Positions 3,371 to 21,143 of a stretch of DNA of 64,000 nucleotides are shown here, one piece after another; the first letter of the stretch is position 1, and each line of letters opens with the position of its first letter. Made by a program: the position numbers and the translations under genes. Source of the DNA: a virus (taxonomy: Duplodnaviria > Heunggongvirae > Uroviricota > Caudoviricetes); IMG/VR virus record IMGVR_UViG_3300027710_000010, positions 53,763 to 117,762 of that record, one strand, 5' to 3'. The notes below the pieces were generated by a model, which did no database searches, was not told the DNA's origin, and saw nothing but the letters and a program-made list of their open reading frames with translations.

Positions 3371-4000
3371 TTATTTTTTAAAGGCTAACAAAGATACAAA
3401 TCCCCATTTGGCATCAACAACTTCGATTTGAACAAATCCAGCTTGCTTCAAAGTTTCGATGTACCATTCAATAGGATGTATAAACATAACACCTTGTAAT
3501 GAGTGTTCTTTAAGTTTTATATCTTCCCAACTAACGCCTTGGCTATGTTTCCATTGATAATATTTCTTTGATACGTAATCTGTGGTAATCATTTTATCGC
3601 TGATAAACACAAATCCGTTATCAATCGATGCGCCCATTTGATTAATAATATCTGTTTTGTTTTCGTTAAAATGCAACACCCAGTTAGCCATGATCGCTTT
3701 GAACTTTTGGGGAGGAAGGTTCGTTGAATATTTTGCAATATCAGTATCGCAAACATCAATCATATCCTGACTTGAATCCACACCTAGTAAATTTGTAAAT
3801 CCTGCACTGGCTAATTGTTGTAAGGTGTAGCCTGTTGCACAACCAAAGTCTACTATAGGATCATCAGAATTGCAAAAATCAACACAGCAATCAATGGATT
3901 GACTTACAACAGTATCGTAGTTAGGTATATGCTGCCTAACATGATCATGGTAAATTACAGCAACTTGTTTGTCAAACTGCCAAGTCATGTGGTACCTCAA
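3371..4000 (-). CDS. class I SAM-dependent methyltransferase
   Basis: Motif I VDFGCATGY and Rossmann-like pattern. Confidence 0.7.
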   Translation of the reverse strand: MRYHMTWQFDKQVAVIYHDHVRQHIPNYDTVVSQSIDCCVDFCNSDDPIVDFGCATGYTLQQLASAGFTNLLGVDSSQDMIDVCDTDIAKYSTNLPPQKFKAIMANWVLHFNENKTDIINQMGASIDNGFVFISDKMITTDYVSKKYYQWKHSQGVSWEDIKLKEHSLQGVMFIHPIEWYIETLKQAGFVQIEVVDAKWGFVSLLAFKK

Positions 4001-4727
4001 ATACTATTCTCAATTCACCGTCATGTGCAGGTATATTTCTGAAAATGTCAAACTCACAATCAAGTGCAACGATAGTTAATGGTAGTTTTAAAATTATTTC
4101 TTTTGTTTTAGCAATAATGCTACCCGGATCATATGGGTTACAATTATTTTCTTCATACCATTCCCAATCAGTATATCGCAATAATCCCCAAGCAGCCAAA
4201 CTAATATAGCCTCGGCCTCCTGGTTTAATAATTTTAGAAAAGTTCATAATTTGATCTGACATGTTTCTAAATGTGCAAGGTACACCATCTTTAAGTCCAA
4301 CATCCATGTTAATGGTAAATGCGGCTTCCAGTTGACGATAATGACGATCAACCCAGGTGTCATCGTAACGAGCAATTTCATCAGCAAAATCACTATTACT
4401 ATCAATTCCATGTATGTTGGGAATATAACGCCTCCATAAATTCCAACCACATCCAATATCATAAATTTTTGTAGGGTTAATTTCTTGTAAAAATTGCAAA
4501 TAATAAAACGTTACAATAGAAACCATGGTCATGGGTTTTTTAACTACTAAGTCATTCCTGCCTAACAATTCTCTGCAAGTAGTACTAAATTTATTTTTCA
4601 TAAAAATAATACTTGGCATATTGCTTGCCACACATGTTACAATGTCAAAATCTTTTTTGACTTGTTGGCCCATGTCTGTTTCTAGGAACTGGTTCTCAAA
4701 CTGTTTGTAATTTATACTGTTTATCAT
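3972..4727 (-). CDS. SAM-dependent methyltransferase-like protein
   Basis: Motif IYDIGCGWN; overlaps the downstream methyltransferase by 29 nt in typical phage fashion. Confidence 0.6.
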   Translation of the reverse strand: MINSINYKQFENQFLETDMGQQVKKDFDIVTCVASNMPSIIFMKNKFSTTCRELLGRNDLVVKKPMTMVSIVTFYYLQFLQEINPTKIYDIGCGWNLWRRYIPNIHGIDSNSDFADEIARYDDTWVDRHYRQLEAAFTINMDVGLKDGVPCTFRNMSDQIMNFSKIIKPGGRGYISLAAWGLLRYTDWEWYEENNCNPYDPGSIIAKTKEIILKLPLTIVALDCEFDIFRNIPAHDGELRIVFEVPHDLAV

Positions 4728-4980
4728 TAAATTATCTTTAGTAATTTTACTATCTTTCTACTATAACTTATCTATTCATTTTGGTTAAACAGGATACATT
4801 TTTTACGACTTTTGCTCTACCAATTGAGCTACATTTGGCTGCTTTTTAGGCTTGACCAAAAGGTAGGACTCGAACCTACGACACAAAGTTTGGATGTAAA
4901 AATTGCTGTTAGTATCCCTAATTGGGGCGACACGGTTAAGTGAAGCTTCCACCAGCTAGTCAAATGGACTAGCACACGTT

Positions 4981-5055
4981 TGGTACCTGGTCACGGTTTC
5001 GAACCGCGGACCCTCTCCGTGTAAAGGAGACGCTCTACCCCTGAGCTAACCAGGC
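4981..5055 (-). tRNA. tRNA-Val (anticodon TAC)
   Basis: Reverse complement GCCTGGTTAGCTCAGGGGTAGAGC...TCTCC-TTTACAC-GGAGA...GGTTCGAAACC; cloverleaf folds; CCA encoded. Confidence 0.8.
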
Positions 5056-5059
5056 AAAT

Positions 5060-5287
5060 TTAATTTACTTTGTTCAAGTAAACTAAAGGATTAACCTTGC
5101 CACTTTGTATTTCCAGCAGTGCTGAAACACAAGGGCTATGATATTCTTTTTCTGCTATGCTGTTACGCCTAATTTCTCTTGCCTTTACAGCCGCAATTAA
5201 AACTAGATTAAATCTATTTCCGCCTGCTTGTTCTACACAAGCTTCTGTGTCTAACTCTGGGCCACGACTAAGTGCTTTTACGGTCAT
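5060..5287 (-). CDS. rpoZ: RNA polymerase omega subunit (RpoZ)-like protein
   Basis: 75 aa; GGNRFNLVLIAAVKAREIRR matches the conserved omega core (GNRFDLVLVAARRARQ in E. coli). Confidence 0.55.
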   Translation of the reverse strand: MTVKALSRGPELDTEACVEQAGGNRFNLVLIAAVKAREIRRNSIAEKEYHSPCVSALLEIQSGKVNPLVYLNKVN

Positions 5288-5344
5288 TATTTTCTCTTTT
5301 TAAAAATTAATTATAACACATACTTAGCAATGTGTCAAATATAT

Positions 5345-5436
5345 TGGTACCAGCGGAGGGAATCAAACCCTCTCAAGAACGCTAATCTGGCGCTAAAAGG
5401 TTTATAAAACCTCTCTGACTGTCAAGTCTCGCTGGC
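5345..5436 (-). tRNA. atypical long-variable-arm tRNA-like gene (anticodon loop TTTATAA; anticodon unresolved, UAU or UUA possible)
   Basis: Acceptor GCCAGCG/CGCTGGT, T-arm GAGGG-TTTGATT-CCCTC, variable stem GCGC/GCGT, CCA encoded; D-arm non-canonical (GACT-TGAC-AGTC). Confidence 0.45.
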
Positions 5437-5441
5437 AATTT

Positions 5442-5516
5442 TGGAGCGGGGTAAGAGAATCGAACTCTCAGCATTAGCTTGGAAGGCTAAGGTATTACCA
5501 CTATACGAACCCCGCA
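5442..5516 (-). tRNA. tRNA-Gly (TCC)
   Basis: GCGGGGTTCGTATAGTGGTAATACC-TTAGC-CTTCCAA-GCTAA...GAGAG-TTCGATT-CTCTT-ACCCCGC-T-CCA; very similar to T4 tRNA-Gly. Confidence 0.85.
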
Positions 5517-5520
5517 TATC

Positions 5521-5814
5521 TTATTTGATGTCTTTACCTGCTAGATCAACTTTACCTGTTTCGTAAAGTTCTTTTCGCTGTGCAAATTCATCTTCTGTTA
5601 GTCCATGCCAGCCAATACATTTGCCAGTCGGACTTCGACCGCACCCGCATCGACCAATATCATCTACGTTTTCTTTTACTCTTACTTGCATATCGTCCTC
5701 TGGAATTAGTTTCTTCATATATGTCGGTACACGCTTGCCAAAAATACCTTCAAAATTAGCATCTGCTTGCGCCATTGAAATATTCGTTGGACGTTGTCTA
5801 CTGCCTTTACCCAT
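5521..5814 (-). CDS. hypothetical Cys-rich protein
   Basis: 97 aa; CGCGRSPTGKCIGWHG cluster suggests a metal-binding site. Confidence 0.45.
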   Translation of the reverse strand: MGKGSRQRPTNISMAQADANFEGIFGKRVPTYMKKLIPEDDMQVRVKENVDDIGRCGCGRSPTGKCIGWHGLTEDEFAQRKELYETGKVDLAGKDIK

Positions 5815-5833
5815 TTACTATCTCCTAACTAAC

Positions 5834-5908
5834 TTGGTGGAGGTTAAGAGAATCGAACTCTTACGAAGACCTTGCAAAGGTCCCAGGCTACCATTACATC
5901 AAACCCCC
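5834..5908 (-). tRNA. tRNA-Ala (TGC)
   Basis: GGGGGTT...GGACC-TTTGCAA-GGTCT...AAGAG-TTCGATT-CTCTT-AACCTCC-A-CCA (G3-U70 present). Confidence 0.75.
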
Positions 5909-5911
5909 AAA

Positions 5912-6064
5912 TTAACTTGCTACTATATGCGGAATATATGGAACTGCTCTTGGACCACCATACAGTTGTTCAAAAAGTTTTTTAGCTTCTTGCGGTGTAT
6001 CCGCATAGATTCTTTTCTTTTCTTCACCTTGTGGTGTTCTTACAGTTGCTTCATACATTGGCAT
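5912..6064 (-). CDS. hypothetical small protein (start trimmed to avoid tRNA overlap)
   Basis: ORF 5912..6121 overlaps tRNA-Pro; internal Met (MPMYEA) is the likelier start. Confidence 0.3.
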   Translation of the reverse strand: MPMYEATVRTPQGEEKKRIYADTPQEAKKLFEQLYGGPRAVPYIPHIVAS

Positions 6065-6077
6065 AAAATTTCCTAAT

Positions 6078-6155
6078 TGGTCGGAGTACAAAGATTCGAA
6101 CTTTGGACCCCCGCGTCCCAAACGCGGTGCGCTAACCAGACTGCGCTACACTCCG
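6078..6155 (-). tRNA. tRNA-Pro (TGG)
   Basis: Plus strand shows CCGCG-tcCCAaa-CGCGG anticodon arm (codon CCA), T-arm CAAAG-attcgaa-CTTTG, acceptor CGGAGTG/TACTCCG. Confidence 0.75.
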
Positions 6156-6163
6156 AATAAACT

Positions 6164-6239
<76 letters not shown>

Positions 6240-6257
6240 GATACATTACTTATAACA

Positions 6258-6331
6258 TGGTTGCGGGACCAGGAATCGAACCTGGGACTGTAGCTTATGA
6301 GACTACTGTTTTACCGCTTCACTATCCCGCG
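6258..6331 (-). tRNA. initiator-like tRNA-fMet (CAT)
   Basis: 5' CGCGGGA..., 3' ...TCCCGCAACCA giving a C1-A72 mismatch as in bacterial initiator tRNA; anticodon loop CTCATAA. Confidence 0.65.
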
Positions 6332-6344
6332 ATAACTTTATAGG

Positions 6345-6425
6345 TGCTCTCTGTTGGAATCGAACCAAACTGTTTAACTCCGTATCTTCCTGGCACTTTC
6401 GGTGTGTAGTCGACCTAGCACCTAA
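6345..6425 (-). pseudogene. tRNA-like fragment / degenerate tRNA
   Basis: T-arm-like TTGG-aatcgaa-CCAA but acceptor and anticodon arms do not fold. Confidence 0.3.
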
Positions 6426-6678
6426 CTCGTGTGATCCAGTGTAGTTAAACTTCAAAGAGCATTTATAAAGTGTCTAGCTACCTACACCACATAGGCCCTA
6501 GACTGAGCTGTTACTCTGTCCATAACATTTTCTTCTTCTGGAAAGGTTATCAATCCTTACCCTAGATAGTTTTCAGTATCCCTTAAATAGGGACTGTAAG
6601 GTCAGGTCCTAGTGTACCCCCTGGTCTATCGTTACAGGGACGCTATTTCGTTAACGTAGAAATAGTAAGACGAGTTTC

Positions 6679-6754
6679 TTGGCTCCCCAACGTGGGCTCG
6701 AACCACGGACCAATTGATTAACAGTCAACTACTCTACCACTGAGCTATTAGGGA
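6679..6754 (-). tRNA. tRNA-Asn (GTT)
   Basis: TCCCTAA-TA-GCTC-AGTGGTA-GAGT..GTTGA-CTGTTAA-TCAAT..CGTGG-TTCGAGC-CCACG; U1-A72 as in E. coli tRNA-Asn. Confidence 0.75.
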
Positions 6755-6761
6755 ATAAACT

Positions 6762-6986
6762 TTATTCTGCGCTTGGTGTTGCGCTGTTACTTGTTGTCGT
6801 ATAATTTGCAGTACCACGTGGACCATTTGATGGCTTAGGTGACTTCATTACAATCTTACTGCATAGTTCAGCATCAATACATGCACGTTTCCATGCGCCA
6901 CGTTGATGTGCATCTTTGAACTTGCCTGTTGCTAAACTTATTTTAAGAAGCGAACTCATTTTATAGTTGCTTGTTGGCTTTAACAT
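6762..6986 (-). CDS. hypothetical protein
   Basis: 74 aa ORF between tRNAs, same strand as array. Confidence 0.3.
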   Translation of the reverse strand: MLKPTSNYKMSSLLKISLATGKFKDAHQRGAWKRACIDAELCSKIVMKSPKPSNGPRGTANYTTTSNSATPSAE

Positions 6987-7005
6987 ATTTTTCCTTTTTT
7001 AAAAT

Positions 7006-7095
7006 TGGCGGAATGACTGAGACTCGAACTCAGAAACCCTCTTTCGAGAGTCGACGGATTAGCAATCCGCTCCAATACCATTATGGGACCATTCC
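7006..7095 (-). tRNA. tRNA-Ser (GCT), type II
   Basis: 90 nt; anticodon arm CGGA-ttAGCaa-TCCG (codon AGC); variable arm CTCT-ttcg-AGAG; T-arm CTGAG-actcgaa-CTCAG. Confidence 0.75.
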
Positions 7096-7104
7096 ATTTA
7101 ACAC

Positions 7105-7195
7105 TTGGCGGAAACGGTGAGATTCGAACTCACGGTGCCTTTCGACACGGCAGTTTTCAAGACTGCTACAATAAACCGGACTCTGTCACATTTCC
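7105..7195 (-). tRNA. tRNA-Ser (TGA), type II
   Basis: 91 nt; anticodon arm GCAGT-ttTCAag-ACTGC (codon TCA); long variable arm; T-arm GTGAG-attcgaa-CTCAC. Confidence 0.75.
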
Positions 7196-7201
7196 ATAAT
7201 T

Positions 7202-7285
7202 TGGTGGGCAAAGAGAGACTCGAACTCTCAATCCTTTCGGCGCTGGCTTCTAAGACCAGAGTGTATACCATTCCACCACTTGCCC
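7202..7285 (-). tRNA. tRNA-Leu (TAG), type II
   Basis: 84 nt; tRNA anticodon arm CTGGT-CTTAGAA-GCCAG; long variable arm; T-arm GAGAG-actcgaa-CTCTC. Confidence 0.75.
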
Positions 7286-7436
7286 AAATTCTTTCCATTG
7301 TTAAGTGCTATGTGCAAATTCTGAGATAGTCGCTAAACATACTCAATGCCGATGCAGTTATGTCAGGATCAGTCGCCGGCAGCTTTGACCCGGATAGTGT
7401 AAGCGTCCTTACACGATACCTTATAACACTTAACAA

Positions 7437-7511
7437 TGGAGACGCTACGGGGAATCGAACCCCGCTTGCCAGGATGAAAACCTAGTGTCCTAACCGATAG
7501 ACGATAGCGTC
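7437..7511 (-). tRNA. tRNA-Glu (TTC)
   Basis: GACGCTA-TC-GTCT-ATCGGTTA-GGAC-A-CTAGG-TTTTCAT-CCTGG..CGGGG-TTCGATT-CCCCG-TAGCGTC-T-CCA. Confidence 0.8.
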
Positions 7512-7609
7512 ATTGTTTCTCTTAAATTTTTAATGAACAGTGTTAGTATTGCTACTAACTAAGTCTCTATTATATAGCGACTTGTGTCACTTGTCAAGTA
7601 AATTTTGGC

Positions 7610-7978
7610 TTAAAGCAAAATTAAAATTAAAAACAAGTAACAAAATTGATGAGCCATTTGGTCTAATCCCAAGTGACTCCAAAATGCCTTAGTGGTAATA
7701 TCTCTATTGCCCCAATTCATTTTTGCCCAATCAATATGATAGTGTACAACACCATCTACCATTGCGGCAATAATTATCCATACTACATACAAATCACTAA
7801 CATAGAAGCTGGCAATCAGCAATGCTATCAAAGTTCCTATGGCTTGCTCTAAGCTGTGACTAATGCCAATAGGATTCCCATAAATGGCTTTGCCTTTTAC
7901 TTGAGCTTCTGTTTGTAAGACAAAGTCCACAATCCAATGTTTGATCTGTAACCAGGTTAAAATTATTAGTATTTCCAT
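7610..7978 (-). CDS. small integral membrane protein
   Basis: 122 aa, 3-4 predicted hydrophobic helices; embedded in the tRNA array. Confidence 0.5.
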   Translation of the reverse strand: MEILIILTWLQIKHWIVDFVLQTEAQVKGKAIYGNPIGISHSLEQAIGTLIALLIASFYVSDLYVVWIIIAAMVDGVVHYHIDWAKMNWGNRDITTKAFWSHLGLDQMAHQFCYLFLILILL

Positions 7979-8030
7979 ATGTATATTATATAACGTTCTG
8001 TATGTAATGTCAAGACATTTTTAAAATATT

Positions 8031-8105
8031 TTGGCCGGGCTTGTAGGAATCGAACCTACACCGTCGGTTTCGAAGACCGAAATGATATCCATTTCACTAA
8101 AGCCC
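8031..8105 (-). tRNA. tRNA-Arg (TCG)
   Basis: CGGGCTT-TA-GTGA-AATGGATA-TCAT-T-TCGGT-CTTCGAA-ACCGA..GTAGG-TTCGATT-CCTAC-AAGCCCG-G-CCA. Confidence 0.8.
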
Positions 8106-8278
8106 GAATAGGTTTTCCGAGCGACCAACTATCTTTCTCAAGGACTCGCTGGCTTGTCTCGTATGAGAGAGTTTAGCTTGACCTTGTGTTGCTACTGGTG
8201 TGTCATGCTCAAGAATAGGGCACTAGCGCACAAGGGACTCAATCTCTACGTCTATCTCAGAAACTTTTTGGTCTCGCC

Positions 8279-8353
8279 ACCAGGAATCGAACCTGGATCT
8301 ACTCTTTAGGAGAGAGCCGTTCTATCCATTGAACTACAGCGAGATGGTGCTCC
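8279..8353 (-). tRNA. tRNA-Arg (CCT)
   Basis: Plus strand anticodon arm CTCT-ttAGGag-AGAG (codon AGG); T-arm CCAGG-aatcgaa-CCTGG; acceptor pairs with G-U wobbles. Confidence 0.7.
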
Positions 8354-8663
8354 CAACTGGTAACGATCCAGTGTTTATACATTACCAATGTATTGTAATG
8401 CCTTTATACTATGAGAGCAGTATTAGAAAAGGACCACAGAGTTGCGGTTGGATGAGGCGACCAAAGTGTTATAGCACTCTCTCTATTTGTCTCGCCTAAC
8501 ATGGAGTTCTTTTGTCCTTAGTGTATTCGCTAATACCGTCAACACTTCATCCGGACAAAGTAAAAAGTCTATAACTCTAACCTAGTGTCGCTTCCGGCAA
8601 ACACTATCGTCCCTTTCGGTTACTTTTAGAACCTTAGTCCTTTACTAATACTGCCGATATAAT

Positions 8664-8747
8664 TGGTGCGGGTGGCCGGACTCGAACCGGCATGCCTTTC
8701 GACGAGAGATTTTAAGTCTCTTGTGTATACCATTTCACCACACCCGC
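8664..8747 (-). tRNA. tRNA-Leu (TAA), type II
   Basis: 84 nt; anticodon arm AGAGA-ttTTAag-TCTCT (codon TTA); T-arm GCCGG-actcgaa-CCGGC; acceptor GCGGGTG/CACCCGC. Confidence 0.8.
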
Positions 8748-8823
8748 ATTGCTTAACAGTCCTTATTATATAACAATAAGCAGTCATTGCCTACATAATT
8801 TGGTTAACTAGTTAAAATAATTT

Positions 8824-8899
8824 TGGTGCAACCTGCAGGGATCGAACCTGCTTCAACGGTGCTTCAAACCGCCGCTATGACCACATCAGCTAAAGTTGC
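8824..8899 (-). tRNA. tRNA-Phe (GAA)
   Basis: GCAACTT-TA-GCTG-ATGTGGTCA-TAGC-G-GCGGT-TTGAAGC-ACCGT..GCAGG-TTCGATC-CCTGC-AGGTTGC-A-CCA. Confidence 0.8.
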
Positions 8900-8983
8900 A
8901 TTAATTTACCATATAGAAACACACTCCCGGAGACGAATTACCTCCCCGTACAAAGTATTATGGCTTCGAATGTGTTTTTATAT

Positions 8984-9057
8984 GGTAGGGGCACAGGGAA
9001 TCGAACCCTGATAGACCGGTTAAAAGCCGGATATTCTAGCCGTTGAATTATACCCCC
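8984..9057 (-). tRNA. tRNA-Lys (TTT)
   Basis: GGGGGTA-TA-ATTC-AACGGCTA-GAAT-A-TCCGG-CTTTTAA-CCGGT..CAGGG-TTCGATT-CCCTG-TGCCCCT-A-CCA. Confidence 0.8.
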
Positions 9058-9060
9058 ATA

Positions 9061-9135
9061 TGGTCCATGCTCTGAGAATCGAACTCAGTTCCTCCGGTTA
9101 AGAGCCGGTTACTTCGCCACTAAAGTTTAGCATGG
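9061..9135 (-). tRNA. tRNA-Lys (CTT)
   Basis: CCATGCT-AA-ACTT-TAGTGGCG-AAGT-A-ACCGG-CTCTTAA-CCGGA..CTGAG-TTCGATT-CTCAG-AGCATGG-A-CCA. Confidence 0.8.
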
Positions 9136-9581
9136 GTGTTCGTATTAGAATTATCTTTTACGTGCCACCTTAGACCATACGGGGGATCTAAGGGACACTA
9201 AAGTTTAGCTGAGCTTCGCTTCATTGTGTTTCCTCTTTTGTTGAATTAGTACAAGTTGTTCGCCGCACAACTTGTAAAGCGGGGGTCTGTTGAATTTGTT
9301 AAAGTAGTTCCCCCATCGTTATAGGAACCATTCACCCGTGTAATAAACTCGAGCAGGACTCGGTACGTTACTTGGGATCCATCCAGATGATACTCACTGT
9401 ATACCGATCCCACCGAAGCGATCAGTCGGGCAACGAACCCGCATCCTTTTACTATATCAGTAGTTCGAACATACCTTTATAGCGTGACTTCTCTTGCTAA
9501 CACTCTAACAAAACTTGGAGCAGAACATTTCTGTTTTTATTCGTATACAGGAATATTACTCCATATACAAACTGCATAACT

Positions 9582-9703
9582 TGGTGTCGCAGCCGGGATT
9601 CGAACCCGGATCTCTTCCTTGACATGGAATGTTGTAAGTTGCTGACTGTATCCTTAACAGGATAACCTTTATATAAGCGTCCTAACCATTAGACGACTGC
9701 GAC
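9582..9703 (-). tRNA. tRNA-Asp (GTC)-like gene with ~48-nt insertion between D-arm and anticodon stem (intron-containing or pseudogene)
   Basis: 3' half canonical (anticodon loop ATGTCAA, T-arm CCGGG-TTCGAAT-CCCGG, CCA); 5' acceptor GTCGCAG and D-arm found ~48 nt farther than expected; the insertion carries the AACAGGAT motif. Confidence 0.4.
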
Positions 9704-9806
9704 AAAATTGGCGGAAGGATGGCGTAATCGAAACCCTGGGCATCACTGCCTCCACCTGTGTTCAAAACAGGGCCAGCATCCCCGGCTGGACAACCTTCCA
9801 TTGTTT

Positions 9807-9883
9807 GGTACCCAAGGTCGGACTCGAACCGACACGATTCTCCTTTTGAGAGAGACGCCTCATACCAATTGGGCTACTTGGGC
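9807..9883 (-). tRNA. tRNA with anticodon CAA (Leu) but short variable arm
   Basis: GCCCAAG-TA-GCC..(12-nt D-loop)..GGC-G-TCTCT-CTCAAAA-GGAGA-ATCGT-GTCGG-TTCGAGT-CCGAC-CTTGGGT-A-CCA; class I architecture is unusual for Leu. Confidence 0.55.
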
Positions 9884-9898
9884 ATAAAACTTATTAGG

Positions 9899-9969
9899 GG
9901 TGACTAACGGGAGTTGAACCCGTACTACCAGAGTCACAGTCTAGGTTGCTACCATTACAACATAGTCAC
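9899..9969 (-). tRNA. tRNA-His (GTG)
   Basis: GTGACTA-TG-TTGT-AATGGTA-GCAA-C-CTAGA-CTGTGAC-TCTGG..ACGGG-TTCAACT-CCCGT-TAGTCAC-C; no CCA encoded. Confidence 0.7.
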
Positions 9970-9981
9970 ACCTAATAAGTC

Positions 9982-10058
9982 TTGGTAGTTCCTACAAGAT
10001 TTGAACTTGTGACCTTCACCGTGTCGAGGTGTTGCTCTACCAACTGAGCTAAGGAACT
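9982..10058 (-). tRNA. tRNA-Val (GAC), anticodon loop with C33
   Basis: AGTTCCT-TA-GCTC-AGTTGGTA-GAGC-A-ACACC-TCGACAC-GGTGA..ACAAG-TTCAAAT-CTTGT-AGGAACT-A-CCA; position 33 is C rather than U. Confidence 0.6.
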
Positions 10059-10061
10059 AAA

Positions 10062-10133
10062 TGGTGCCTCTGAGTAGATTCGAACTACTATAACCTGGCT
10101 TAGAAGGCCTGGCACTGCTCCATCAGCAGAGGC
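10062..10133 (-). tRNA. tRNA-Arg (TCT) with irregular D-arm
   Basis: Anticodon loop CTTCTAA, T-arm AGTAG-TTCGAAT-CTACT, acceptor GCCTCTG/CAGAGGC perfect; D-arm does not fold canonically. Confidence 0.5.
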
Positions 10134-10257
10134 AAATTAAACAGGATAGATTTAACATAGTGCTACCGTTACACCAAACCTTTCGGCTACGGAGTCGAAC
10201 CGTTCCTTTTCTTTTCAAGAGAAGTGAGTTATAATGTTTGCTGTTACTATCCTAAAC
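10134..10257 (-). other. tRNA-like fragment flanked by ATCCTGTTT motif and TTTGCTGTTACTATCCTAAACTGG motif
   Basis: Isolated T-arm-like CGG-TTCGACT-CCG without a matching acceptor; same architecture as 4786-4925. Confidence 0.3.
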
Positions 10258-10334
10258 TGGTACCCGCGGAAGGATTCGAACCTCCGACTCCCACGTTCGT
10301 AGCGTAGTACTCTAGTCCACTGAGTTACGCGGGT
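10258..10334 (-). tRNA. tRNA-Arg (ACG)
   Basis: ACCCGCG-TA-ACTC-AGTGGACTA-GAGT-A-CTACG-CTACGAA-CGTGG-GAGTC-GGAGG-TTCGAAT-CCTTC-CGCGGGT-A-CCA. Confidence 0.8.
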
Positions 10335-10394
10335 ATAATAAAACAGGATGCCTTTTTTGATACGGCTTGAAAGCCGTTGCTCAACCGCTGAGCG

Positions 10395-10465
10395 AATCTG
10401 CCATAAGGCAAATGTTGGAATCGAACCAACGTGTCATAAATGACGTTGCTGTAAGCATCCTTAAC
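10395..10465 (-). pseudogene. tRNA-like fragment (T-arm only)
   Basis: GTTGG-aatcgaa-CCAAC T-arm but no foldable acceptor or anticodon arm. Confidence 0.3.
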
Positions 10466-10540
10466 TTGGCACCCGGACTAGGGATCGAACCTAGGCTAAC
10501 AGAGTCAAAGTCTGTTGTGCTACCATTACACAATCCGGGA
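10466..10540 (-). tRNA. tRNA-Gln (TTG)
   Basis: Plus strand anticodon arm ACAGA-gtCAAag-TCTGT (codon CAA); T-arm CTAGG-gatcgaa-CCTAG; CCA encoded; position 1-72 mismatched. Confidence 0.7.
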
Positions 10541-10547
10541 ATAAAAT

Positions 10548-10625
10548 TGGTCTCCATGGTAGGATTCGAACCTACAGCCTCCTGACTCCAGATCAGGCCG
10601 TCTACCAGATTGACATTACACAGAG
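10548..10625 (-). tRNA. tRNA, anticodon ambiguous (loop TCTGGAG: TGG-Pro with C33, or GGA)
   Basis: CTCTGTG.. CCTGA-TCTGGAG-TCAGG-AGGCT-GTAGG-TTCGAAT-CCTAC-CATGGAG-A-CCA; good stems but non-canonical loop register. Confidence 0.5.
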
Positions 10626-10817
10626 ATATTTCTCTTACCGGCCGGACTTACACCGGCAATATACTAGATACGTTAAATCTAGCCTTCCTAATGATACGTG
10701 CTTTCTTCACACGAATGACGATAAATTTAATGTAAGGCTATGCGAGCTCATCTGCATACTTAGGCTTTTTGTCTTCTCCTGCCCGGGCAGTTACGACTGT
10801 AGCGTCACCTTAAAACT

Positions 10818-10889
10818 TGGAGCGGGCTACAGGCATCGAACCTGCATCTTTCGGCTTGGAAGGCCAAACGTATTCCTCTAACAACCCGC
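10818..10889 (-). tRNA. tRNA-Gly (TCC)-like, second copy, irregular D-arm
   Basis: GCGGGTT... TTGGC-CTTCCAA-GCCGA..GCAGG-TTCGATG-CCTGT-AGCCCGC-T-CCA. Confidence 0.5.
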
Positions 10890-10896
10890 ATAAACT

Positions 10897-10971
10897 TGGT
10901 GGAGACCGAGGGAATCGAACCCTTCTAGTCAAGTATCTTGCAAGGATACTCCGTAACCCATTACTGCCCCC
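10897..10971 (-). tRNA. tRNA-Ala (TGC)-like, atypical (6-bp anticodon stem, 4-nt D-loop)
   Basis: GGGGGCA..GTAA-TGGG-TTAC..AGTATC-CTTGCAA-GATACT..AGGG-TTCGATT-CCCT-GGTCTCC-A-CCA. Confidence 0.45.
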
Positions 10972-10973
10972 AT

Positions 10974-11055
10974 TATAGAAACACACTTAAACAGTCCATA
11001 AGCGGTTACTCGCTGACTCCCTAGGTAACAGGGCGGATCTGTATGTGTTTCTATA
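10974..11055. repeat. 11-13 bp inverted repeat TATAGAAACACAC ... GTGTTTCTATA flanking ~60 nt
   Basis: Seen directly at 10974-10986 and 11045-11055 between two tRNA genes. Confidence 0.6.
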
Positions 11056-11056
11056 A

Positions 11057-11134
11057 TGGCTGTCCGACTAGGGATCGAACCTAGCTCATTCTTCGTTAAC
11101 AGCGAAGCGCCTACACCATGCTTGCTCTCGGACA
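11057..11134 (-). tRNA. tRNA-Asn (GTT), second copy
   Basis: TGTCCGA... CTTCG-CTGTTAA-CGAAG..CTAGG-TTCGATC-CCTAG-TCGGACA-G-CCA; U1-A72. Confidence 0.7.
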
Positions 11135-11144
11135 ATAAATTTTT

Positions 11145-11217
11145 GGTATCGCGTACGGGGATCGAACCCGCCTGAGTAAGTTGAAAGCCTACGGACCTCA
11201 CCAGAAGTCAAACGCGA
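11145..11217 (-). tRNA. tRNA-Glu (TTC), second copy
   Basis: ATCGCGT-TT-GACT-TCTGGTGA-GGTC-C-GTAGG-CTTTCAA-CTTAC-TCAG-GCGGG-TTCGATC-CCCGT-ACGCGAT-A-CCA. Confidence 0.7.
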
Positions 11218-11287
11218 TGTAATAAACAGGATGCTTATTTTTCAATTAAAAGTTGAATTTTTGAATTTGCTGTTCGCATCCTAAAAT

Positions 11288-11361
11288 TGGTGCCCCATGA
11301 CAGAATCGAACTGCCGTAACCTGATTACAAAACAGGTGTAATGCCATTATACTAATAGGGC
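11288..11361 (-). tRNA. tRNA-Thr (TGT), second copy
   Basis: Anticodon arm CCTG(A)-ttACAaa-(A)CAGG (codon ACA); T-arm ACAG-aatcgaa-CTGC; acceptor GCCCTAT/ATGGGGC; CCA. Confidence 0.65.
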
Positions 11362-11438
11362 GAAAAAAACAGGATAGCATCTTTTTAGATTTTCGTATAA
11401 AGAAAAGTTTTATTAAGTTTGCTGTTACTATCCTAAAC

Positions 11439-11512
11439 TGGAGCGGGTAGCGAGAATCGAACTCGCGAATAAACCTTGGCAAGGTTTCAGGTTACCATTA
11501 CATCATACCCGC
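11439..11512 (-). tRNA. tRNA-Gly (GCC)
   Basis: Anticodon arm AAACC-ttGGCaa-GGTTT (codon GGC); T-arm GCGAG-aatcgaa-CTCGC; acceptor GCGGGTA/TACCCGC; CCA. Confidence 0.8.
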
Positions 11513-11518
11513 ATTAAC

Positions 11519-11593
11519 TTGGCGTACCTCCAGAGACTCGAACTCCGACGAACAGTTTTGGAGACTGTCATGCTGCCATTACATTAGAGATAC
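11519..11593 (-). tRNA. tRNA-Trp (CCA)
   Basis: Anticodon arm ACAGT-ttTGGag-ACTGT (codon TGG); T-arm and acceptor (GTATCTC/GAGGTAC) fold; CCA. Confidence 0.7.
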
Positions 11594-11599
11594 ACTAAT

Positions 11600-11675
11600 T
11601 GGCGCCTCGTAGGGGTTTCGATCCCCTTGCCTCCGCAGTGACAGTGCGGTGCTCTCCCGATTGAGCTAACGAAGC
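11600..11675 (-). tRNA. tRNA-Asp (GTC)
   Basis: Anticodon arm CCGCA-gtGACag-TGCGG (codon GAC); D-arm GCTC-tcccgatt-GAGC; T-arm AGGGG-tttcgat-CCCCT; CCA. Confidence 0.8.
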
Positions 11676-11680
11676 ATAAT

Positions 11681-11754
11681 TGGTTCCTCCAACAAGAATC
11701 GAACTTGTAATGACCGGTTATCAGCCGATTGTTATACCATTTAACTATAGAGGA
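11681..11754 (-). tRNA. tRNA-Ile (GAT)
   Basis: tRNA anticodon arm ATCGG-CTGATAA-CCGGT; T-arm ACAAG-TTCGATT-CTTGT; acceptor TCCTCTA/TGGAGGA; CCA. Confidence 0.75.
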
Positions 11755-11759
11755 ATAAT

Positions 11760-11837
11760 TGGAGTACGGGGAGGGAGTCGAACCCTCGGTTTTACGATTT
11801 TGCAGACCGTTGCATTGGGCCTCTCTGCCACCCGTAC
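11760..11837 (-). tRNA. tRNA-Cys (GCA)
   Basis: GTACGGG-TG-GCA-(11-nt loop)-TGC-A-ACGGT-CTGCAAA-ATCGT..GAGGG-TTCGACT-CCCTC-CCCGTAC-T-CCA. Confidence 0.7.
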
Positions 11838-11843
11838 ATGTTT

Positions 11844-11919
11844 TGGTGGTAATGATTGGATTTGAACCAATAACACTCTCCGTATGAAGGAGGAAGACTA
11901 CCATTGTCCTACATTACCA
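11844..11919 (-). tRNA. tRNA-Met (CAT), elongator-type (or Ile2 if lysidinylated)
   Basis: GGTAATG-TA-GGAC-AATGGTA-GTCT-T-CCTCC-TTCATAC-GGAGA-GTGTT-ATTGG-TTCAAAT-CCAAT-CATTACC-A-CCA. Confidence 0.7.
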
Positions 11920-11924
11920 TAATT

Positions 11925-12008
11925 GGTGGAGTATCCTGGGATCGAACCAGGCGTGCCCGAAGGCGGCGGATTTACAGTCCACTGCATCACCATTGATGCT
12001 TCTACTCC
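11925..12008 (-). tRNA. tRNA-Tyr (GTA), type II
   Basis: 84 nt; anticodon arm GTGGA-CTGTAAA-TCCGC identical in loop to E. coli tRNA-Tyr; 3-bp D-stem, long variable arm; CCA. Confidence 0.75.
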
Positions 12009-12013
12009 ATGTT

Positions 12014-12088
12014 TGGCGCCGCCGACGGGAATCGAACCCGCCTTAGTTGGATAGACAATCCAGTGCCCTCCCAGAGGACTACAACGGC
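12014..12088 (-). tRNA. tRNA with atypical anticodon loop TTGTCTA (GTC with pyrimidine at 37); identity uncertain
   Basis: GCCGTTG-TA-GTCC-TCTGGGA-GGGC-A-CTGGA-TTGTCTA-TCCAA-CTAAG-GCGGG-TTCGATT-CCCGT-CGGCGGC-G-CCA. Confidence 0.45.
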
Positions 12089-12092
12089 AAAT

Positions 12093-12178
12093 TGGTGGAT
12101 GTGGTAAGATTCGAACTTACTACACTATGTGAACGAGGTTACAGCTCGCCGTGGCTCTCCAGCTCCGACCGCACATCC
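12093..12178 (-). tRNA. type II tRNA with anticodon GTA (second Tyr-like)
   Basis: 86 nt; anticodon arm GCGAG-CTGTAAC-CTCGT, variable arm CAC-ata-GTG, T-arm GTAAG-TTCGAAT-CTTAC, acceptor GGATGTG/CACATCC, CCA. Confidence 0.6.
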
Positions 12179-16365: not shown

Positions 16366-16944
16366 CTAGGTTATTCGTTTGATATCGTTCCAGTCTAAAT
16401 CAGACACGTCAACTAGAATGTCTTGAATTGCCAGTGTTGATTTAAATTCTAAGAGTGTATACATTAGCTTTGCTAGTTCAATAGGTTGCATTTTTTTAGA
16501 ATCAAATATCTTCGCCATATCAGTATCTACTAGACCAATAGTAAAATTCATAATATGAGGCCTTGCTTTAAAAATCCTATCATTAATTATTCTTGACTGT
16601 TCAGCTTTATCTTGAACATATTCTTCCATGTATGCGGGAACATTTTTTATTAGTATAGATTTACTATTAATATTAATTATAGTATTTGTAGTACCTTCCC
16701 ATAATTGTATAGTGTCCAATAACAACTGTTTTTGTGCATTCGGTGCGTAGGCGTTGTTTATAAAAACATCACATGTCTTTAGAACGTTATTAATATGCTT
16801 ACGTGTTGCTTCATCATTGATGTCGTGTCCGTTTGATCTACTGAATCCAAATACTGTATGTCCTTGTGCTGTAAAATATTCAGTTAGGGCTTTACCTATT
16901 CCATTAGTATGACCAGTAATTGCTATGTTCATAACGACTTCCAA
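16366..16944 (-). CDS. short-chain dehydrogenase/reductase (SDR) family protein
   Basis: N-terminal IAITGHTNGIGKAL matches the TGxxxGxG NAD(P)-binding motif. Confidence 0.6.
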   Translation of the reverse strand: MEVVMNIAITGHTNGIGKALTEYFTAQGHTVFGFSRSNGHDINDEATRKHINNVLKTCDVFINNAYAPNAQKQLLLDTIQLWEGTTNTIININSKSILIKNVPAYMEEYVQDKAEQSRIINDRIFKARPHIMNFTIGLVDTDMAKIFDSKKMQPIELAKLMYTLLEFKSTLAIQDILVDVSDLDWNDIKRIT

Positions 16945-18485
16945 TTTAATTTTTTTAAAATATATTCTTGAACTAATATATTGCTTTCTCTTGGATAATT
17001 TTCTAAGACGTTAATATCGTCATCCATCAACTGTTGTAGAGTCTTGTCACTGTAATATTCAAATGGCTTGTTATAAACTAATTCAAGATCTCCGACATTC
17101 CACATTACTGGACCGTAATTTGATGCATATCTATTCTTATAAAAATTAGCAACAATTTTCATAGTGTCCATGATATTCCATTCATCATTTTCCCAGCTTA
17201 TACCAGTATTCTCTATCAAACTCTCCCCTACACCATACTGTGTTGGTATCTGTTTAAATAGGTCCTTAATAGCTGGATACATATCAAAAGCAGTTTCTCG
17301 ATAGTTATATTTTTTCCAGTCAGTGGTTAATTTAGAAAAGTTATCCCCACCGTTTGGTTTAGGAATATACATTGGAAATAATATTAAATTTTCTGTTTTC
17401 CAGTTAGTCTCAAACCACGTTAATGATTTTTCTAGACTCTCTTTAGTTTCATAGGGTAACCCTGCAATTAAACTAACTTGCCCTTTGTATATACCATTCT
17501 TTTTAAAATAGTCCCTTGCTTCCAATAAACCAGGTAGTAGTTTATCAGGGTGCATACCTTTACCGATTGTTTTTAAACTTTCTGGGTTAGTTGATTCTAC
17601 ACCGTAGTGATGTCCTACAAATCCCATGTCTAACATAATATCCCAGTCTTGTTTTCGTGATACTAATAAGTCTGCCCTAGCAAATCCAAAGAATCTAGGT
17701 TTAAATGAAAGTTTTTTGATTGCAGTTTGAAACTTTTGCAATTTTTCTGTATAGTCGTTGACTGTTTCATCTGCAATAACATATCGTGTAACACCAAACC
17801 GATCATATGTGTCCTGCAATTCTTCTCGTAAATCTTCTGCGTCTCTACTGTGATCTTCCTTAACACCTAATACAGGAAAGTTACAAAAACTACAATTGAA
17901 TATACAACCACGACCAAACTCTACTACTAGAGTTTCATTAGCTAAAATAAAATCTCTATCCTCATAACATATTCTTAATTTTTTCATAGGAAAACTTGGA
18001 TAGTCGGTATTGCCTTTGATTACCCTTCTTCCATTTATTCCTAATTGATATTTTACTTTTTCACCACCAGTAATATGTTTGAGCAATGCTTCTATTGCTC
18101 GTTCTCCAAACCCATCTACATACCAATCTGCTTCAATACGATAGTTGTTGCTGATTTGTCCGCCTGCAATAATTTTTATATTAGGATACGTATCTCTTAC
18201 CCACTTAAAGTATAATTCTAATTTAGGCGACCAAATTGGAAAAGTACTACCGAACCCAATAAAAACAGTTTTGTTGCTAACTCTTGAGTTGGTAAATTCT
18301 TGTAACTGTTCTAAACTCCAGCCCATTACAAAGTCTAATACTTCTATGTCCCAATTTTGCTCTCTAAGATAAGTTGCGATCCTATGTGCTCCGCCTGTCC
18401 TCTTGTATACTGCGTGTACATTAGACAATGAACTAAAACCTGTTAAAATTAATCCGTGCATAGTTGTATTATAGTACGCCAGCAA
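16929..18485 (-). CDS. B12-binding-domain radical SAM enzyme
   Basis: CxxxCxxC motif GRGCIFNCSFCNFP mid-protein; ~180-aa N-terminal domain typical of cobalamin-binding class B radical SAM proteins; paralogous to 21144..22571. Confidence 0.7.
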   Translation of the reverse strand: MLAYYNTTMHGLILTGFSSLSNVHAVYKRTGGAHRIATYLREQNWDIEVLDFVMGWSLEQLQEFTNSRVSNKTVFIGFGSTFPIWSPKLELYFKWVRDTYPNIKIIAGGQISNNYRIEADWYVDGFGERAIEALLKHITGGEKVKYQLGINGRRVIKGNTDYPSFPMKKLRICYEDRDFILANETLVVEFGRGCIFNCSFCNFPVLGVKEDHSRDAEDLREELQDTYDRFGVTRYVIADETVNDYTEKLQKFQTAIKKLSFKPRFFGFARADLLVSRKQDWDIMLDMGFVGHHYGVESTNPESLKTIGKGMHPDKLLPGLLEARDYFKKNGIYKGQVSLIAGLPYETKESLEKSLTWFETNWKTENLILFPMYIPKPNGGDNFSKLTTDWKKYNYRETAFDMYPAIKDLFKQIPTQYGVGESLIENTGISWENDEWNIMDTMKIVANFYKNRYASNYGPVMWNVGDLELVYNKPFEYYSDKTLQQLMDDDINVLENYPRESNILVQEYILKKLNWKSL

Positions 18486-19119
18486 TAATGACTACGTTTG
18501 ATTTTAAATGATATTGATCAACTTTATGTACTTTAAAAGCTAATCCGCAAGAATCTAATTGTTCTTTGATTTCTTCTACTGTAAAACATGCTCGTAAACT
18601 ATTTTCAAAATCTAATCTAAAAATGTCGTCCAAGTAGGGCTCTTTAAATTTAATTATTTCTTGTAGTTCTTCTTCAGTATCAGGTCTAATAAAATCTAGT
18701 ATAAAAACATCTTTCGGGGCTATCCTTTTAATGGATTCCCAAAACTGTAAAGGATCGTGAAAGTGATGTAAGGTCAAAGAAGAAATTACCCTATCATAGT
18801 ATTGTGTAACATCTGTGATTGATTTTTGTTCAAATTTAATATTATCGTGATTTCTAGTCAGTGATAACATTTCAGAACTATTGTCTATTCCTACAATTTT
18901 GGTAGTAGGATGTATTACAGCTATTTCTTCAGTTAAGTCTCCAGGGCCGCAGCCAAGATCAACCATAGTTTCTGGGACTTGTTTTTTGACTGACACATAG
19001 GCCAATTTAAATAGATGTTTAATTTGGTCCCTATCATTTTTATAGTATGACTGCACTTGCAAAGGATCTATCATTAATTCTGGTTCAACGATTCTTTTCA
19101 TGATATATTTATTAACCAT
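18469..19119 (-). CDS. class I SAM-dependent methyltransferase
   Basis: Motif I MVDLGCGPGDLT. Confidence 0.7.
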   Translation of the reverse strand: MVNKYIMKRIVEPELMIDPLQVQSYYKNDRDQIKHLFKLAYVSVKKQVPETMVDLGCGPGDLTEEIAVIHPTTKIVGIDNSSEMLSLTRNHDNIKFEQKSITDVTQYYDRVISSLTLHHFHDPLQFWESIKRIAPKDVFILDFIRPDTEEELQEIIKFKEPYLDDIFRLDFENSLRACFTVEEIKEQLDSCGLAFKVHKVDQYHLKSNVVIIAGVL

Positions 19120-19140
19120 ATCATTGATGATATATAATTT

Positions 19141-19992
19141 ATGAATCAGTCTTATACGTTAAGTCCTAGCAACTTCGAATTTGTGATTGAAGATCACTTT
19201 CCAAAATTGCCTAGCAATAAAAAGGTTGGGGTGTTTTTGTCTGGCGGAATGGAATCGAGTTTGATTAGTTTGATAGCCAGCAAGCATTATGGCAAAGATC
19301 GTGTTATCTTCTTTTATTCTGATAATATATTTTCCTCTAACGATCCTGCTAGAAACGTCTACATTCACACTAATATAAATCGAGCTGCCAAACTGCTTGA
19401 TATAACTCCCACTTACTTGGATTTTAATTATACTGCTCACGTTGATAATCGCAAACAATCTATACAGGATAAAATGCAAAGTTTAAAAACAGATTATGCT
19501 GTTGATTTTGTAATGTTTGGCTTTACTAAATTATTTTTCGACGTAGAAATTTTTAAACAGCAGGACATGACTATTGAAAAAATCAAAGAAATTGCCTACG
19601 CTGATCCTATTAAATACAAATCTACTATTGAAGAATTTCATTTAGACACTGGACGATATACTGAGCATTTATTAGACATAGATATTCCAGCCGAAGTATA
19701 CCCGTTGCTCAGGCAAACTTCAGGATTTATTAAGAGTCCTTTTAATCAGTTGAATAAAAGTGAAGTTGTTGACCTTTACAGGCAACTAGGATTACTAGAC
19801 AAGTTATACGGCACGAGCTCTTGTATTAGAGATAGTTTGACTGTTACTGGCAAGCATTGCGGTGCTTGTTTTAATTGTCAGCAAAGGTGGGATGCATTTA
19901 AAATATTGGGTGATATTGAAGACTTAACTGAGTACAATTCCGACAATATTAAACATTATAGAGAACAATTAGAACATGCTATTCATTCATAA
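19141..19992 (+). CDS. QueC-like PP-loop ATP pyrophosphatase
   Basis: SGGMES P-loop (SGGxDS family) and C-terminal Zn-site-like CGACFNC resembling QueC CGHCAAC. Confidence 0.6.
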   Translation: MNQSYTLSPSNFEFVIEDHFPKLPSNKKVGVFLSGGMESSLISLIASKHYGKDRVIFFYSDNIFSSNDPARNVYIHTNINRAAKLLDITPTYLDFNYTAHVDNRKQSIQDKMQSLKTDYAVDFVMFGFTKLFFDVEIFKQQDMTIEKIKEIAYADPIKYKSTIEEFHLDTGRYTEHLLDIDIPAEVYPLLRQTSGFIKSPFNQLNKSEVVDLYRQLGLLDKLYGTSSCIRDSLTVTGKHCGACFNCQQRWDAFKILGDIEDLTEYNSDNIKHYREQLEHAIHS

Positions 19993-21142: not shown

Positions 21143-21143
21143 T

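Follow-up and report, generated by a model that had tools for sequence, protein, structure and literature searches.

It was asked which codon is read, and with which amino acid, by an unusual tRNA gene of a phage (Caudoviricetes) whose anticodon loop, UUUAUAA, can be read in more than one register. The gene lies at positions 5345-5436 of a stretch of 64,000 nucleotides (nt), hereafter the window, which spans positions 53,763 to 117,762 of the IMG/VR record IMGVR_UViG_3300027710_000010. A first description drawn from the letters of this DNA (the sequence-only reading) presented the gene as a non-canonical tRNA with a long extra (variable) arm and offered two anticodons, UAU, reading AUA, and UUA, an ochre suppressor; suppressor tRNAs are known in huge phages, and a link to stop-codon recoding was suggested. 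The results given below fix the anticodon as UAU and suggest that the gene probably serves the phage as an elongator tRNA for AUA, read as isoleucine (Ile).

Results

Fold of the gene and covariation in its family

ARAGORN found 37 tRNAs clustered on one strand at 4981-12178 and called the gene among them as tRNA-Ile(tat) of 92 nt. The RNA sequence is GCCAGCGAGACUUGACAGUCAGAGAGGUUUUAUAAACCUUUUAGCGCCAGAUUAGCGUUCUUGAGAGGGUUUGAUUCCCUCCGCUGGUACCA, and its parts are listed in Table 1. Its minimum-free-energy fold is the cloverleaf (-34.2 kcal/mol, z = -4.3), the stability of which was matched by none of 200 shuffles. The acceptor stem, T arm, variable-arm stem and encoded CCA noted in the sequence-only reading are all present; the CCA is undistinctive, since nearly every tRNA in the array encodes one. 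The top pair of the acceptor stem is a G1.U72 wobble, and the discriminator A73 lies at 5348. The D arm GACU-UGAC-AGUC, with its 4-nt loop, is indeed non-standard, and the canonical two-nucleotide connector U8-N9, D loop of 7-11 nt with A14, and R15:Y48 are all missing. The best Rfam match of the gene was the selenocysteine tRNA, tRNA-Sec (RF01852), at 30.6 bits against a gathering threshold of 47.

Homologues obtained from a first scan of viral contigs, from looser scans and from loci reached via a neighbouring protein were aligned as 81 distinct sequences from 164 loci. The first scan alone gave 13 loci in which the 92 nt were identical and both flanks unrelated, and the 92-nt sequence was identical in 16 fetched loci with wholly different flanking DNA. 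When the cloverleaf was laid on the alignment, 99.6% of cells were paired and 19 of the 29 pairs changed on both sides. The covariation score was 0.389, compared with 0.111 for shuffles, none of 500 of which reached 0.389, and with 0.045-0.074 when partners were slid by 1-3 columns. Covariation was seen in 7 acceptor pairs, 4 of the 5 T-stem pairs, the 4 inner anticodon-stem pairs and 3 extra-arm pairs (44:58, 45:57 and 46:56, each changing on both sides), and acceptor and T cells were 100% paired. The structure is real, far beyond chance, and the description of the gene as a non-canonical long-arm tRNA is upheld by the ARAGORN call, the fold and the covariation.

The division of the acceptor/T branch follows from pair 65:81, which covaries as Watson-Crick (G-C in 65 sequences, U-A in 8, C-G in 7 and A-U in 1) and thus gives a 7/5 branch of 12 base pairs (bp) rather than an 8/4 branch, a fold that would set A8 opposite C81. 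This covariation and the sub-threshold Sec score ruled out both the 8/4 fold of allo-tRNAs and the bulged tRNA-Sec-like fold of the Rfam alignment. An identity as tRNA-Sec was also rejected on its score, on the anticodon, which is UAU and not UCA, and on the branch, which is 7/5 and not 8/5. Furthermore, the 1:72 pair was G.U in 76 sequences, A-U in 4 and C-G in 1, with A73 invariant. The connector A8 was present in 80 of the 81 sequences, followed by a D loop of 4 nt with the form N-G-R-N; the D stem and the AGAG after it were invariant, but most search patterns required them. RNA columns 15:72 (A15 at 5422, U72 at 5365) showed G:C in 78 sequences and A:U in the other 3, with no mixed combinations. 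The odd T loop of the window gene, with U at position 56, and the A at position 19 of its D loop make up the G19:C56 elbow pair in compensated A:U form, which accounts for the T loop and indicates that the molecule folds as an L.

All 81 sequences showed the anticodon loop Y-U-UAU-A-N, in which U33, UAU and A37 were invariant whereas positions 32 (U or C) and 38 (A, C, U or G) varied. The outer three pairs of the anticodon stem (G.U, A-U and G.U) never varied, and the inner four (25:39, 26:38, 27:37 and 28:36) covaried. The covarying stem boundaries and the invariant U33-UAU-A37 thus place the register at UAU and exclude UUA, so that only the first of the two anticodons offered in the sequence-only reading stands. 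Its remark that UAU is atypical for a long-arm tRNA was justified. The gene was the most conserved tRNA of the array, with a mean pairwise identity of 0.948 versus 0.71-0.92 for the others, in a ranking made from arrays ascertained by protein and not by tRNA. It is under strong purifying selection.

Meaning of AUA and decoding by the tRNA array

AUA occurs at 13.8 per 1000 codons, which corresponds to 20% of Ile codons and 1.4% of all codons. Open reading frames (ORFs) of the window and of 102 related loci were grouped into 24 families, and the codons replacing ATA in each column of the codon alignments were recorded. In 236 ATA columns the replacements were I 0.37, V 0.21, L 0.12, M 0.04 and T 0.04, compared with I 0.35, V 0.24 and L 0.12 in 503 ATT columns and I 0.47, V 0.19 and L 0.10 in 334 ATC columns. 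Leucine (Leu) codons were replaced by L at 0.51-0.61 (259-374 columns) and serine (Ser) codons by S at 0.33-0.34 (210-376 columns). Smaller versions of the test agreed. AUA is an Ile codon in this phage clade.

The array covers every codon box, and the gene at 5345-5436 is the only AUA reader among its 37 tRNAs. Two tRNAs with the anticodon CAU are encoded. That at 6258-6331 shows the C1xA72 mismatch of initiators and is most similar to the tRNA-fMet of phage T5, and that at 11844-11918 has the same anticodon arm as the T5 elongator tRNA-Met. No tRNA-Ile2(CAU) was found in the array, neither of the two resembling T5 tRNA-Ile2(CAU), and tRNA-Ile(GAU) lies at 11681-11754. With Met-type CAU tRNAs and tRNA-Ile(GAU) present and tRNA-Ile2(CAU) missing, the UAU gene fills the only empty slot and is best read as a candidate decoder of AUA as Ile.

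A GAU-loop extra arm shared by phage tRNAs with UAU

By its sequence the gene is assigned to a widespread phage superfamily of tRNAs that combine the anticodon UAU with an extra-arm hairpin of 3-6 covarying bp and a 7-nt loop N-A-G-A-U-(U/A)-A. The loop is CAGAUUA in 80 of the 81 sequences of the window family, and it also turned up in all but one sequence when a scan left the loop free. In sibling phages of the clade, the window scaffold is replaced by long-arm UAU tRNAs whose D arm is normal and whose extra-arm loop reads CAGAUAA, CAGAUUA or UAGAUAA. Altogether, the feature was found on at least six scaffolds, in phages that include jumbo phages and isolates infecting Synechococcus, Vibrio, Pectobacterium, Klebsiella and Escherichia coli.

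The motif AGAU(A/U)A was counted among the unique long tRNAs of all fetched loci. It was present in 86 of 87 UAU tRNAs and in only 2 of the 312 long-arm Leu, Ser and tyrosine (Tyr) tRNAs, both among the Leu(UAG) tRNAs (2/46); Leu(UAA) (0/70), Leu(CAA) (0/10), Ser(GCU) (0/72), Ser(UGA) (0/71) and Tyr (0/43) tRNAs lacked it. In the Leu and Ser tRNAs of the window itself, the extra arm is closed by a GAAA tetraloop. On inspection, neither the anticodon loop nor the D or T loop was consistently complementary to the extra-arm loop.

Members in isolates were found by BLAST with the sibling-scaffold sequences and the window gene. In the freshwater cyanophage S-SRM01 the member is unannotated and missing from the 11 tRNAs that its authors obtained with tRNAscan-SE 2.0. 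It is annotated as tRNA-Ile in the Vibrio phages henriette 12B8 and the Achelous group, so that some members carry a plain tRNA-Ile annotation, and is mostly unannotated in the Pectobacterium phages Wc4 and PhiM1, the Klebsiella phage KP13-26 and E. coli Drexlerviridae such as EC3a and Opt-719. ARAGORN missed or miscalled 5 of 7 re-scanned isolate copies. The Achelous member comes directly after tRNA-Ile(GAU), and the two are 76% identical when its 17-nt hairpin is left out. Ile2(CAU) is lacking in Achelous, where Met tRNAs of initiator-like and elongator-like type are encoded; in its relative T5, Ile2(CAU) is present and the hairpin tRNA is not.

AGA and AUA are classic rare codons of E. coli. 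The small T1-like phages of this host carry two tRNAs only, an arginine tRNA, tRNA-Arg(UCU or CCU), and the GAU-hairpin tRNA(UAU), a set that matches the rare-codon pair. EC3a (KY398841, locus L284) and Opt-719 (OL539451, locus L285) are such coliphages of 44-48 kb, in which the unannotated member stands directly after the sole annotated tRNA, tRNA-Arg; ARAGORN misses one of the two copies and calls the other 'tRNA-???'.

The family is essentially viral. A first genome scan for a host origin found no copy, and a second returned 46 stretches, of which three metagenome-derived assemblies (L218, L234 and L247) held the gene and the others looked like chance. No copy was found among 5,426 complete E. 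coli genomes. A host origin was rejected, the genome scans having given only these three metagenome-derived contigs. Furthermore, no protein family co-occurred within 4 kb across subfamilies, and megablast found no close cultured relative of the window. Similarity of the D arm, tried as a guide to the isotype, was uninformative, D arms being generic in the clade. The natural phage family was undescribed in the open full-text literature searched, a coverage that lay outside subscription journals.

Discussion

Decoding of AUA and charging with isoleucine

We propose the following scenario for the gene at 5345-5436. It probably encodes a functional elongator tRNA that decodes AUA as Ile for the phage, and the features needed for decoding are kept, namely the L fold, the 7/5 branch, the elbow pair, the 7-nt loop with U33-UAU-A37, and A73-CCA. 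The tRNA would be charged with Ile by the isoleucyl-tRNA synthetase (IleRS) of the host and would make AUA decoding independent of the host's lysidine-modified tRNA-Ile2. With regard to IleRS and N6-threonylcarbamoyladenosine at position 37 (t6A37), it is only the sequence prerequisite, U36-A37, that is present. IleRS of tilS-bearing bacteria rejects U34, and in E. coli, where Trp905 is responsible, the kcat/Km ratio between the lysidine-modified anticodon (LAU) and UAU is 360 (PMC3575796).

Because E. coli-type IleRS charges tRNAs with UAU poorly (about 360-fold, against U34), we tentatively suggest a role for the extra arm, which might be a natural pseudo-anticodon that shows GAU to the synthetase while UAU is shown to the ribosome. 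The invariant loop N-A-GAU-(U/A)-A would then be the hallmark that makes a UAU tRNA usable, since it would present to IleRS the anticodon of the major tRNA-Ile. The anticodon loop of the tRNA-Ile(GAU) that these phages encode is Y-U-GAU-A-A, and the extra-arm loop is C-A-GAU-U/A-A. The Ile determinants are A73, C29-G41, G34, A35, U36, A37 and A38, with C4-G69, U12-A23 and C29-G41 as minor ones in E. coli (PMC9976931); the extra arm holds GAU and A38, and its equivalent of the 29:41 pair is C:G in 80 of the 81 sequences. A synthetic pseudo-anticodon in the extra arm can enhance aminoacylation (PMC7590224), the principle having been demonstrated with engineered tRNAs only.

Several points weigh against decoding of AUA as Ile by this tRNA, or against its charging through the extra arm. 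The codon test gives the meaning of AUA and not its reader, and tRNA-Ile2 of the host could read the codon. The extra arm of a class-II tRNA normally lies elsewhere than the anticodon, and a stem of anything between 3 and 6 bp, depending on the scaffold, argues against rigid docking in the anticodon pocket of IleRS. The extra-arm loop has A33 instead of U33 and, in the window subfamily, U37 instead of A37, which makes t6A impossible there. In the true anticodon arm and stems, A38 varies and C4-G69, U12-A23 and C29-G41 are mostly absent. Moreover, a UAU anticodon is a poor substrate of E. coli IleRS (PMC3575796), and most tested allo-tRNA(UAU) species are translationally inactive in E. coli (PMC5389517). 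Six cyanophage-type loci (L151, L177, L195, L205, L210 and L213) hold both the GAU-hairpin tRNA(UAU) and a class-I tRNA(UAU) of 73-75 nt, which indicates that the former is not always the sole decoder of AUA.

Alternative explanations

An ochre (UUA) suppressor linked to stop recoding in a huge phage was suggested by the loop UUUAUAA, which holds UUA when read one base out of register. It can be dismissed with near certainty, being ruled out by the covariation that fixes the UAU register, by ORF structure and by stop usage. ARAGORN assigned a sense identity, tRNA-Ile(UAU), an outcome that the sequence-only reading had itself named as speaking against recoding, and the proposed link to recoding failed on the ORFs, which are intact under the standard code. 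Standard-code ORFs of at least 100 amino acids (aa) cover 82% of the window, the remainder being mostly the tRNA array, and adjacent ORFs touch or share a few bases. Several GenBank phages have homologues of a 468-aa ORF, and alignments with these span the whole ORF (residues 1-467 or 1-468). TAA was the commonest stop in 62 chosen ORFs (TAA 38, TGA 22, TAG 2), and an ochre suppressor would therefore be harmful to the phage. An ordinary class-II tRNA-Leu, -Ser or -Tyr was likewise rejected, the long arm being present with UAU instead of the anticodon of such a tRNA. It is also improbable that the gene encodes a mis-sense recoder, that is, a class-II tRNA charged irrespective of its anticodon by leucyl- or seryl-tRNA synthetase (LeuRS, SerRS) and inserting Leu or Ser at AUA. 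This possibility draws on the long extra arm together with A73, the main LeuRS determinant (PMC9976931), on the nematode nev-tRNA-Ile(UAU), which is charged with Leu only (PMC3333845), on allo-tRNAs that insert Ser at Leu codons (PMC5389517), and on the best Rfam match, tRNA-Sec, being a SerRS substrate. However, codons replacing AUA follow the profile of AUU and AUC, with no excess of Leu (0.12 vs 0.12 and 0.10) or Ser, and recoding of a codon as frequent as AUA would harm the phage's own proteins. A73 is invariant, whereas tRNA-Ser has G73, and the phage tRNA, having a 4-nt D loop and only one connector nucleotide, is without the U8:A14 and R15:Y48 to which bacterial LeuRS identity is ascribed (PMC9976931). 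Of the 312 Leu, Ser and Tyr tRNAs in the same loci, 310 lack the extra-arm motif, and the Achelous scaffold, which bears the same extra-arm signature, resembles the adjacent tRNA-Ile(GAU).

Somewhat less improbable, but still unlikely, is a tRNA-like RNA that acts outside translation, as a decoy or inhibitor of a host tRNA-targeting defence or enzyme, as an IleRS sponge or as a regulatory RNA, with the extra-arm loop as a binding site. Extreme conservation of the whole molecule, loop included, would suit such a role, as would the addition of a class-I tRNA(UAU) in some phages and the several aberrant tRNA-like genes in the window array; most tested allo-tRNA(UAU) species are inactive in translation and are linked to toxin-antitoxin loci (PMC5389517). 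Yet every feature required by the ribosome and EF-Tu has been retained (the 12-bp 7/5 branch, the elbow, U33, the 7-nt loop, A37 and A73-CCA), and, as in functional anticodon loops, variation is seen at positions 32 and 38 but never in UAU. The gene closes the one gap in decoding that the array would otherwise have and is one of only two tRNAs in small E. coli phages, where it stands beside tRNA-Arg(UCU). In addition, no family of partner proteins accompanies it from lineage to lineage.

Comparison with known systems

In UAU, A37 and A73, the phage tRNA resembles tRNA-Ile2(UAU) of Mycoplasma mobile, the anticodon of which is unmodified and by which AUA is read without lysidine or TilS (PMC3575796). 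The M. mobile tRNA is an ordinary class-I molecule served by an adapted IleRS (Arg865), whereas the phage tRNA would meet unadapted host enzymes and has a long arm with the GAU loop and a reduced D arm. T5 tRNA-Ile2(CAU) (NC_005859, 37086-37163) likewise decodes AUA within a large phage tRNA array; it is class I with a CAU anticodon that needs the host's TilS, in contrast to UAU and the GAU hairpin in the window. No tRNA with UAU and the GAU hairpin was found in the T5 tRNA region (NC_005859, 28000-40000, locus L288). Seven 'stable RNAs with unknown functions' are annotated in that region, three of them tRNA-like and none with the UAU/GAU-hairpin signature.

Allo-tRNA(UAU) shares with the phage tRNA a resemblance to tRNA-Sec, a long extra arm, a D tetraloop, a lengthened anticodon stem and the anticodon UAU (PMC5389517). 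Allo-tRNAs have an 8/4 or 9/3 branch, G73 or U73 and a long D stem, and occur in Acidobacteria and other bacteria, with a link to toxin-antitoxin loci (PMC5389517), whereas the phage tRNA has a 7/5 branch by covariation, invariant A73 and a 4-bp D stem and occurs in phage tRNA arrays. The nematode nev-tRNA-Ile(UAU) is also a class-II tRNA with UAU, but it is a weakly expressed eukaryotic tRNA that derives from tRNA-Leu(UAA) and accepts Leu, and its extra arm of 15-16 nt has no reported GAU loop (PMC3333845). The codon evolution described above indicates that the phage tRNA is not a Leu acceptor of this kind.

Engineered pseudo-anticodon tRNAs come closest to the proposed role of the extra arm, in that an anticodon-arm mimic placed there recruits a synthetase independently of the decoding anticodon (PMC7590224). 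They are engineered, with a GUG loop and a histidyl-tRNA synthetase fused to an extra anticodon-binding domain (PMC7590224). No natural pseudo-anticodon that works with an unmodified host synthetase was found in the literature searched.

Implications

AUA decoders are expected in phages, so the function is probably ordinary, and it is the architecture that is a new and widespread variant. It represents a conserved non-canonical structural class that annotation based on tRNAscan-SE often misses, and the GAU-hairpin tRNA(UAU) is systematically omitted from phage tRNA counts and codon-adaptation analyses. Its unexplained hallmark is a GAU-bearing loop that recurs on unrelated scaffolds, always with UAU. 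If this loop recruits IleRS, it would be a viral answer to the long-standing AUA problem, namely that IleRS rejects U34 and that C34 depends on TilS. A new principle of tRNA identity would be introduced as well, with the first natural tRNA whose identity comes from a mimic of the anticodon placed outside the anticodon arm. A tRNA that reads AUA without lysidine or TilS would then be charged by an unadapted host IleRS, which would offer a ready design for sense-codon reassignment. The members in culturable T1-like phages of E. coli make the pseudo-anticodon idea readily testable with E. coli IleRS.

Other features of the window

The Y-RNA-like match and the DUF2828/DUF7788 protein lie 2 kb apart (Table 1) and may constitute a phage Ro60-like/Y RNA module. 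Next to the array, the CmoA-like ORF and the 251-aa ORF that overlaps it might be a phage pair for wobble modification of tRNA. Between these and the tRNA gene lies an rpoZ-like ORF, homologues of which occur in 22 related loci. Within the array, Table 1 includes five tRNA matches or tRNA-like RNAs missed by ARAGORN, and the rest of the window contains a permuted gene for transfer-messenger RNA (tmRNA) and several auxiliary genes.

Table 1. Positions of the long-arm tRNA gene, its parts and other features in the window
Feature	Position	Strand	Description
Long-arm tRNA gene, anticodon UAU	5345-5436	minus	92 nt, of which 89 nt to discriminator A73, plus encoded CCA at 5345-5347
Acceptor stem GCCAGCG/CGCUGGU	5430-5436 (RNA 1-7) paired with 5349-5355 (RNA 82-88)	minus	7 of 7 pairs change on both sides
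D arm GACU-UGAC-AGUC	5417-5428 (RNA 9-20)	minus	4-bp stem, 4-nt loop; single connector A8 at 5429
Anticodon arm	5395-5415 (RNA 22-42)	minus	7-bp stem, loop UUUAUAA; anticodon UAU at 5404-5406
Extra (variable) arm AGCGC-CAGAUUA-GCGUU	5378-5394 (RNA 43-59)	minus	7-nt loop at 5383-5389, GAU central
Linker CUUGA	5373-5377 (RNA 60-64)	minus	5 nt between extra arm and T stem; UUGA invariant in family; length apparently that of a class-I variable loop
T arm GAGGG-UUUGAUU-CCCUC	5356-5372 (RNA 65-81)	minus	5-bp stem; 4 of 5 pairs covary; U at position 56
DUF2828/DUF7788 protein	1389-2795	minus	468 aa; RefSeq homologues named 'RNA-binding protein'
CmoA-like ORF	3371-4000	minus	209 aa; full-length match to CmoA (carboxy-S-adenosylmethionine synthase; 5-carboxymethoxyuridine at position 34, cmo5U34), 67 bits, below family cut-off of 193
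251-aa ORF	3972-4727	minus	No family match; overlaps CmoA-like ORF
Y-RNA-like match (YrlA, RF02553)	4785-4910	minus	33 bits, threshold 69; T-arm-like and D-arm-like segments in permuted order
rpoZ-like ORF (RNA polymerase omega)	5060-5287	minus	75 aa, directly downstream of the tRNA; NCBIfam 27.3 bits, cut-off 23.6
tRNA match (RF00005), GUC (Asp) loop	9585-9703	minus	119 nt, 46.8 bits; missed by ARAGORN; normal acceptor, D and T arms; about 45 extra nt between D and anticodon arms
Long-arm tRNA-like RNA, UGA loop	9713-9799	minus	Missed by ARAGORN
tRNA-like RNA, UGC loop	10897-10971	minus	Missed by ARAGORN; G3:U70 and CCA
tRNA-like RNA, UUC loop	11147-11219	minus	Missed by ARAGORN; 6-bp D stem, 4-nt loop
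tRNA-like RNA, GUA loop	11927-12008	minus	Missed by ARAGORN; 6-bp D stem, 4-nt loop
Permuted tmRNA gene	41405-41855	minus	Tag peptide AKTSTFKFFEVPASVARAANAERFELAA
Auxiliary genes	16929-22571, 37294-39981, 44304-46409, 50011-51171		Three radical S-adenosylmethionine (radical-SAM) proteins; nicotinamide adenine dinucleotide (NAD) salvage pair (NAMPT and cytidylyltransferase/Nudix); CHASE2-adenylate/guanylate cyclase; FecR-domain protein

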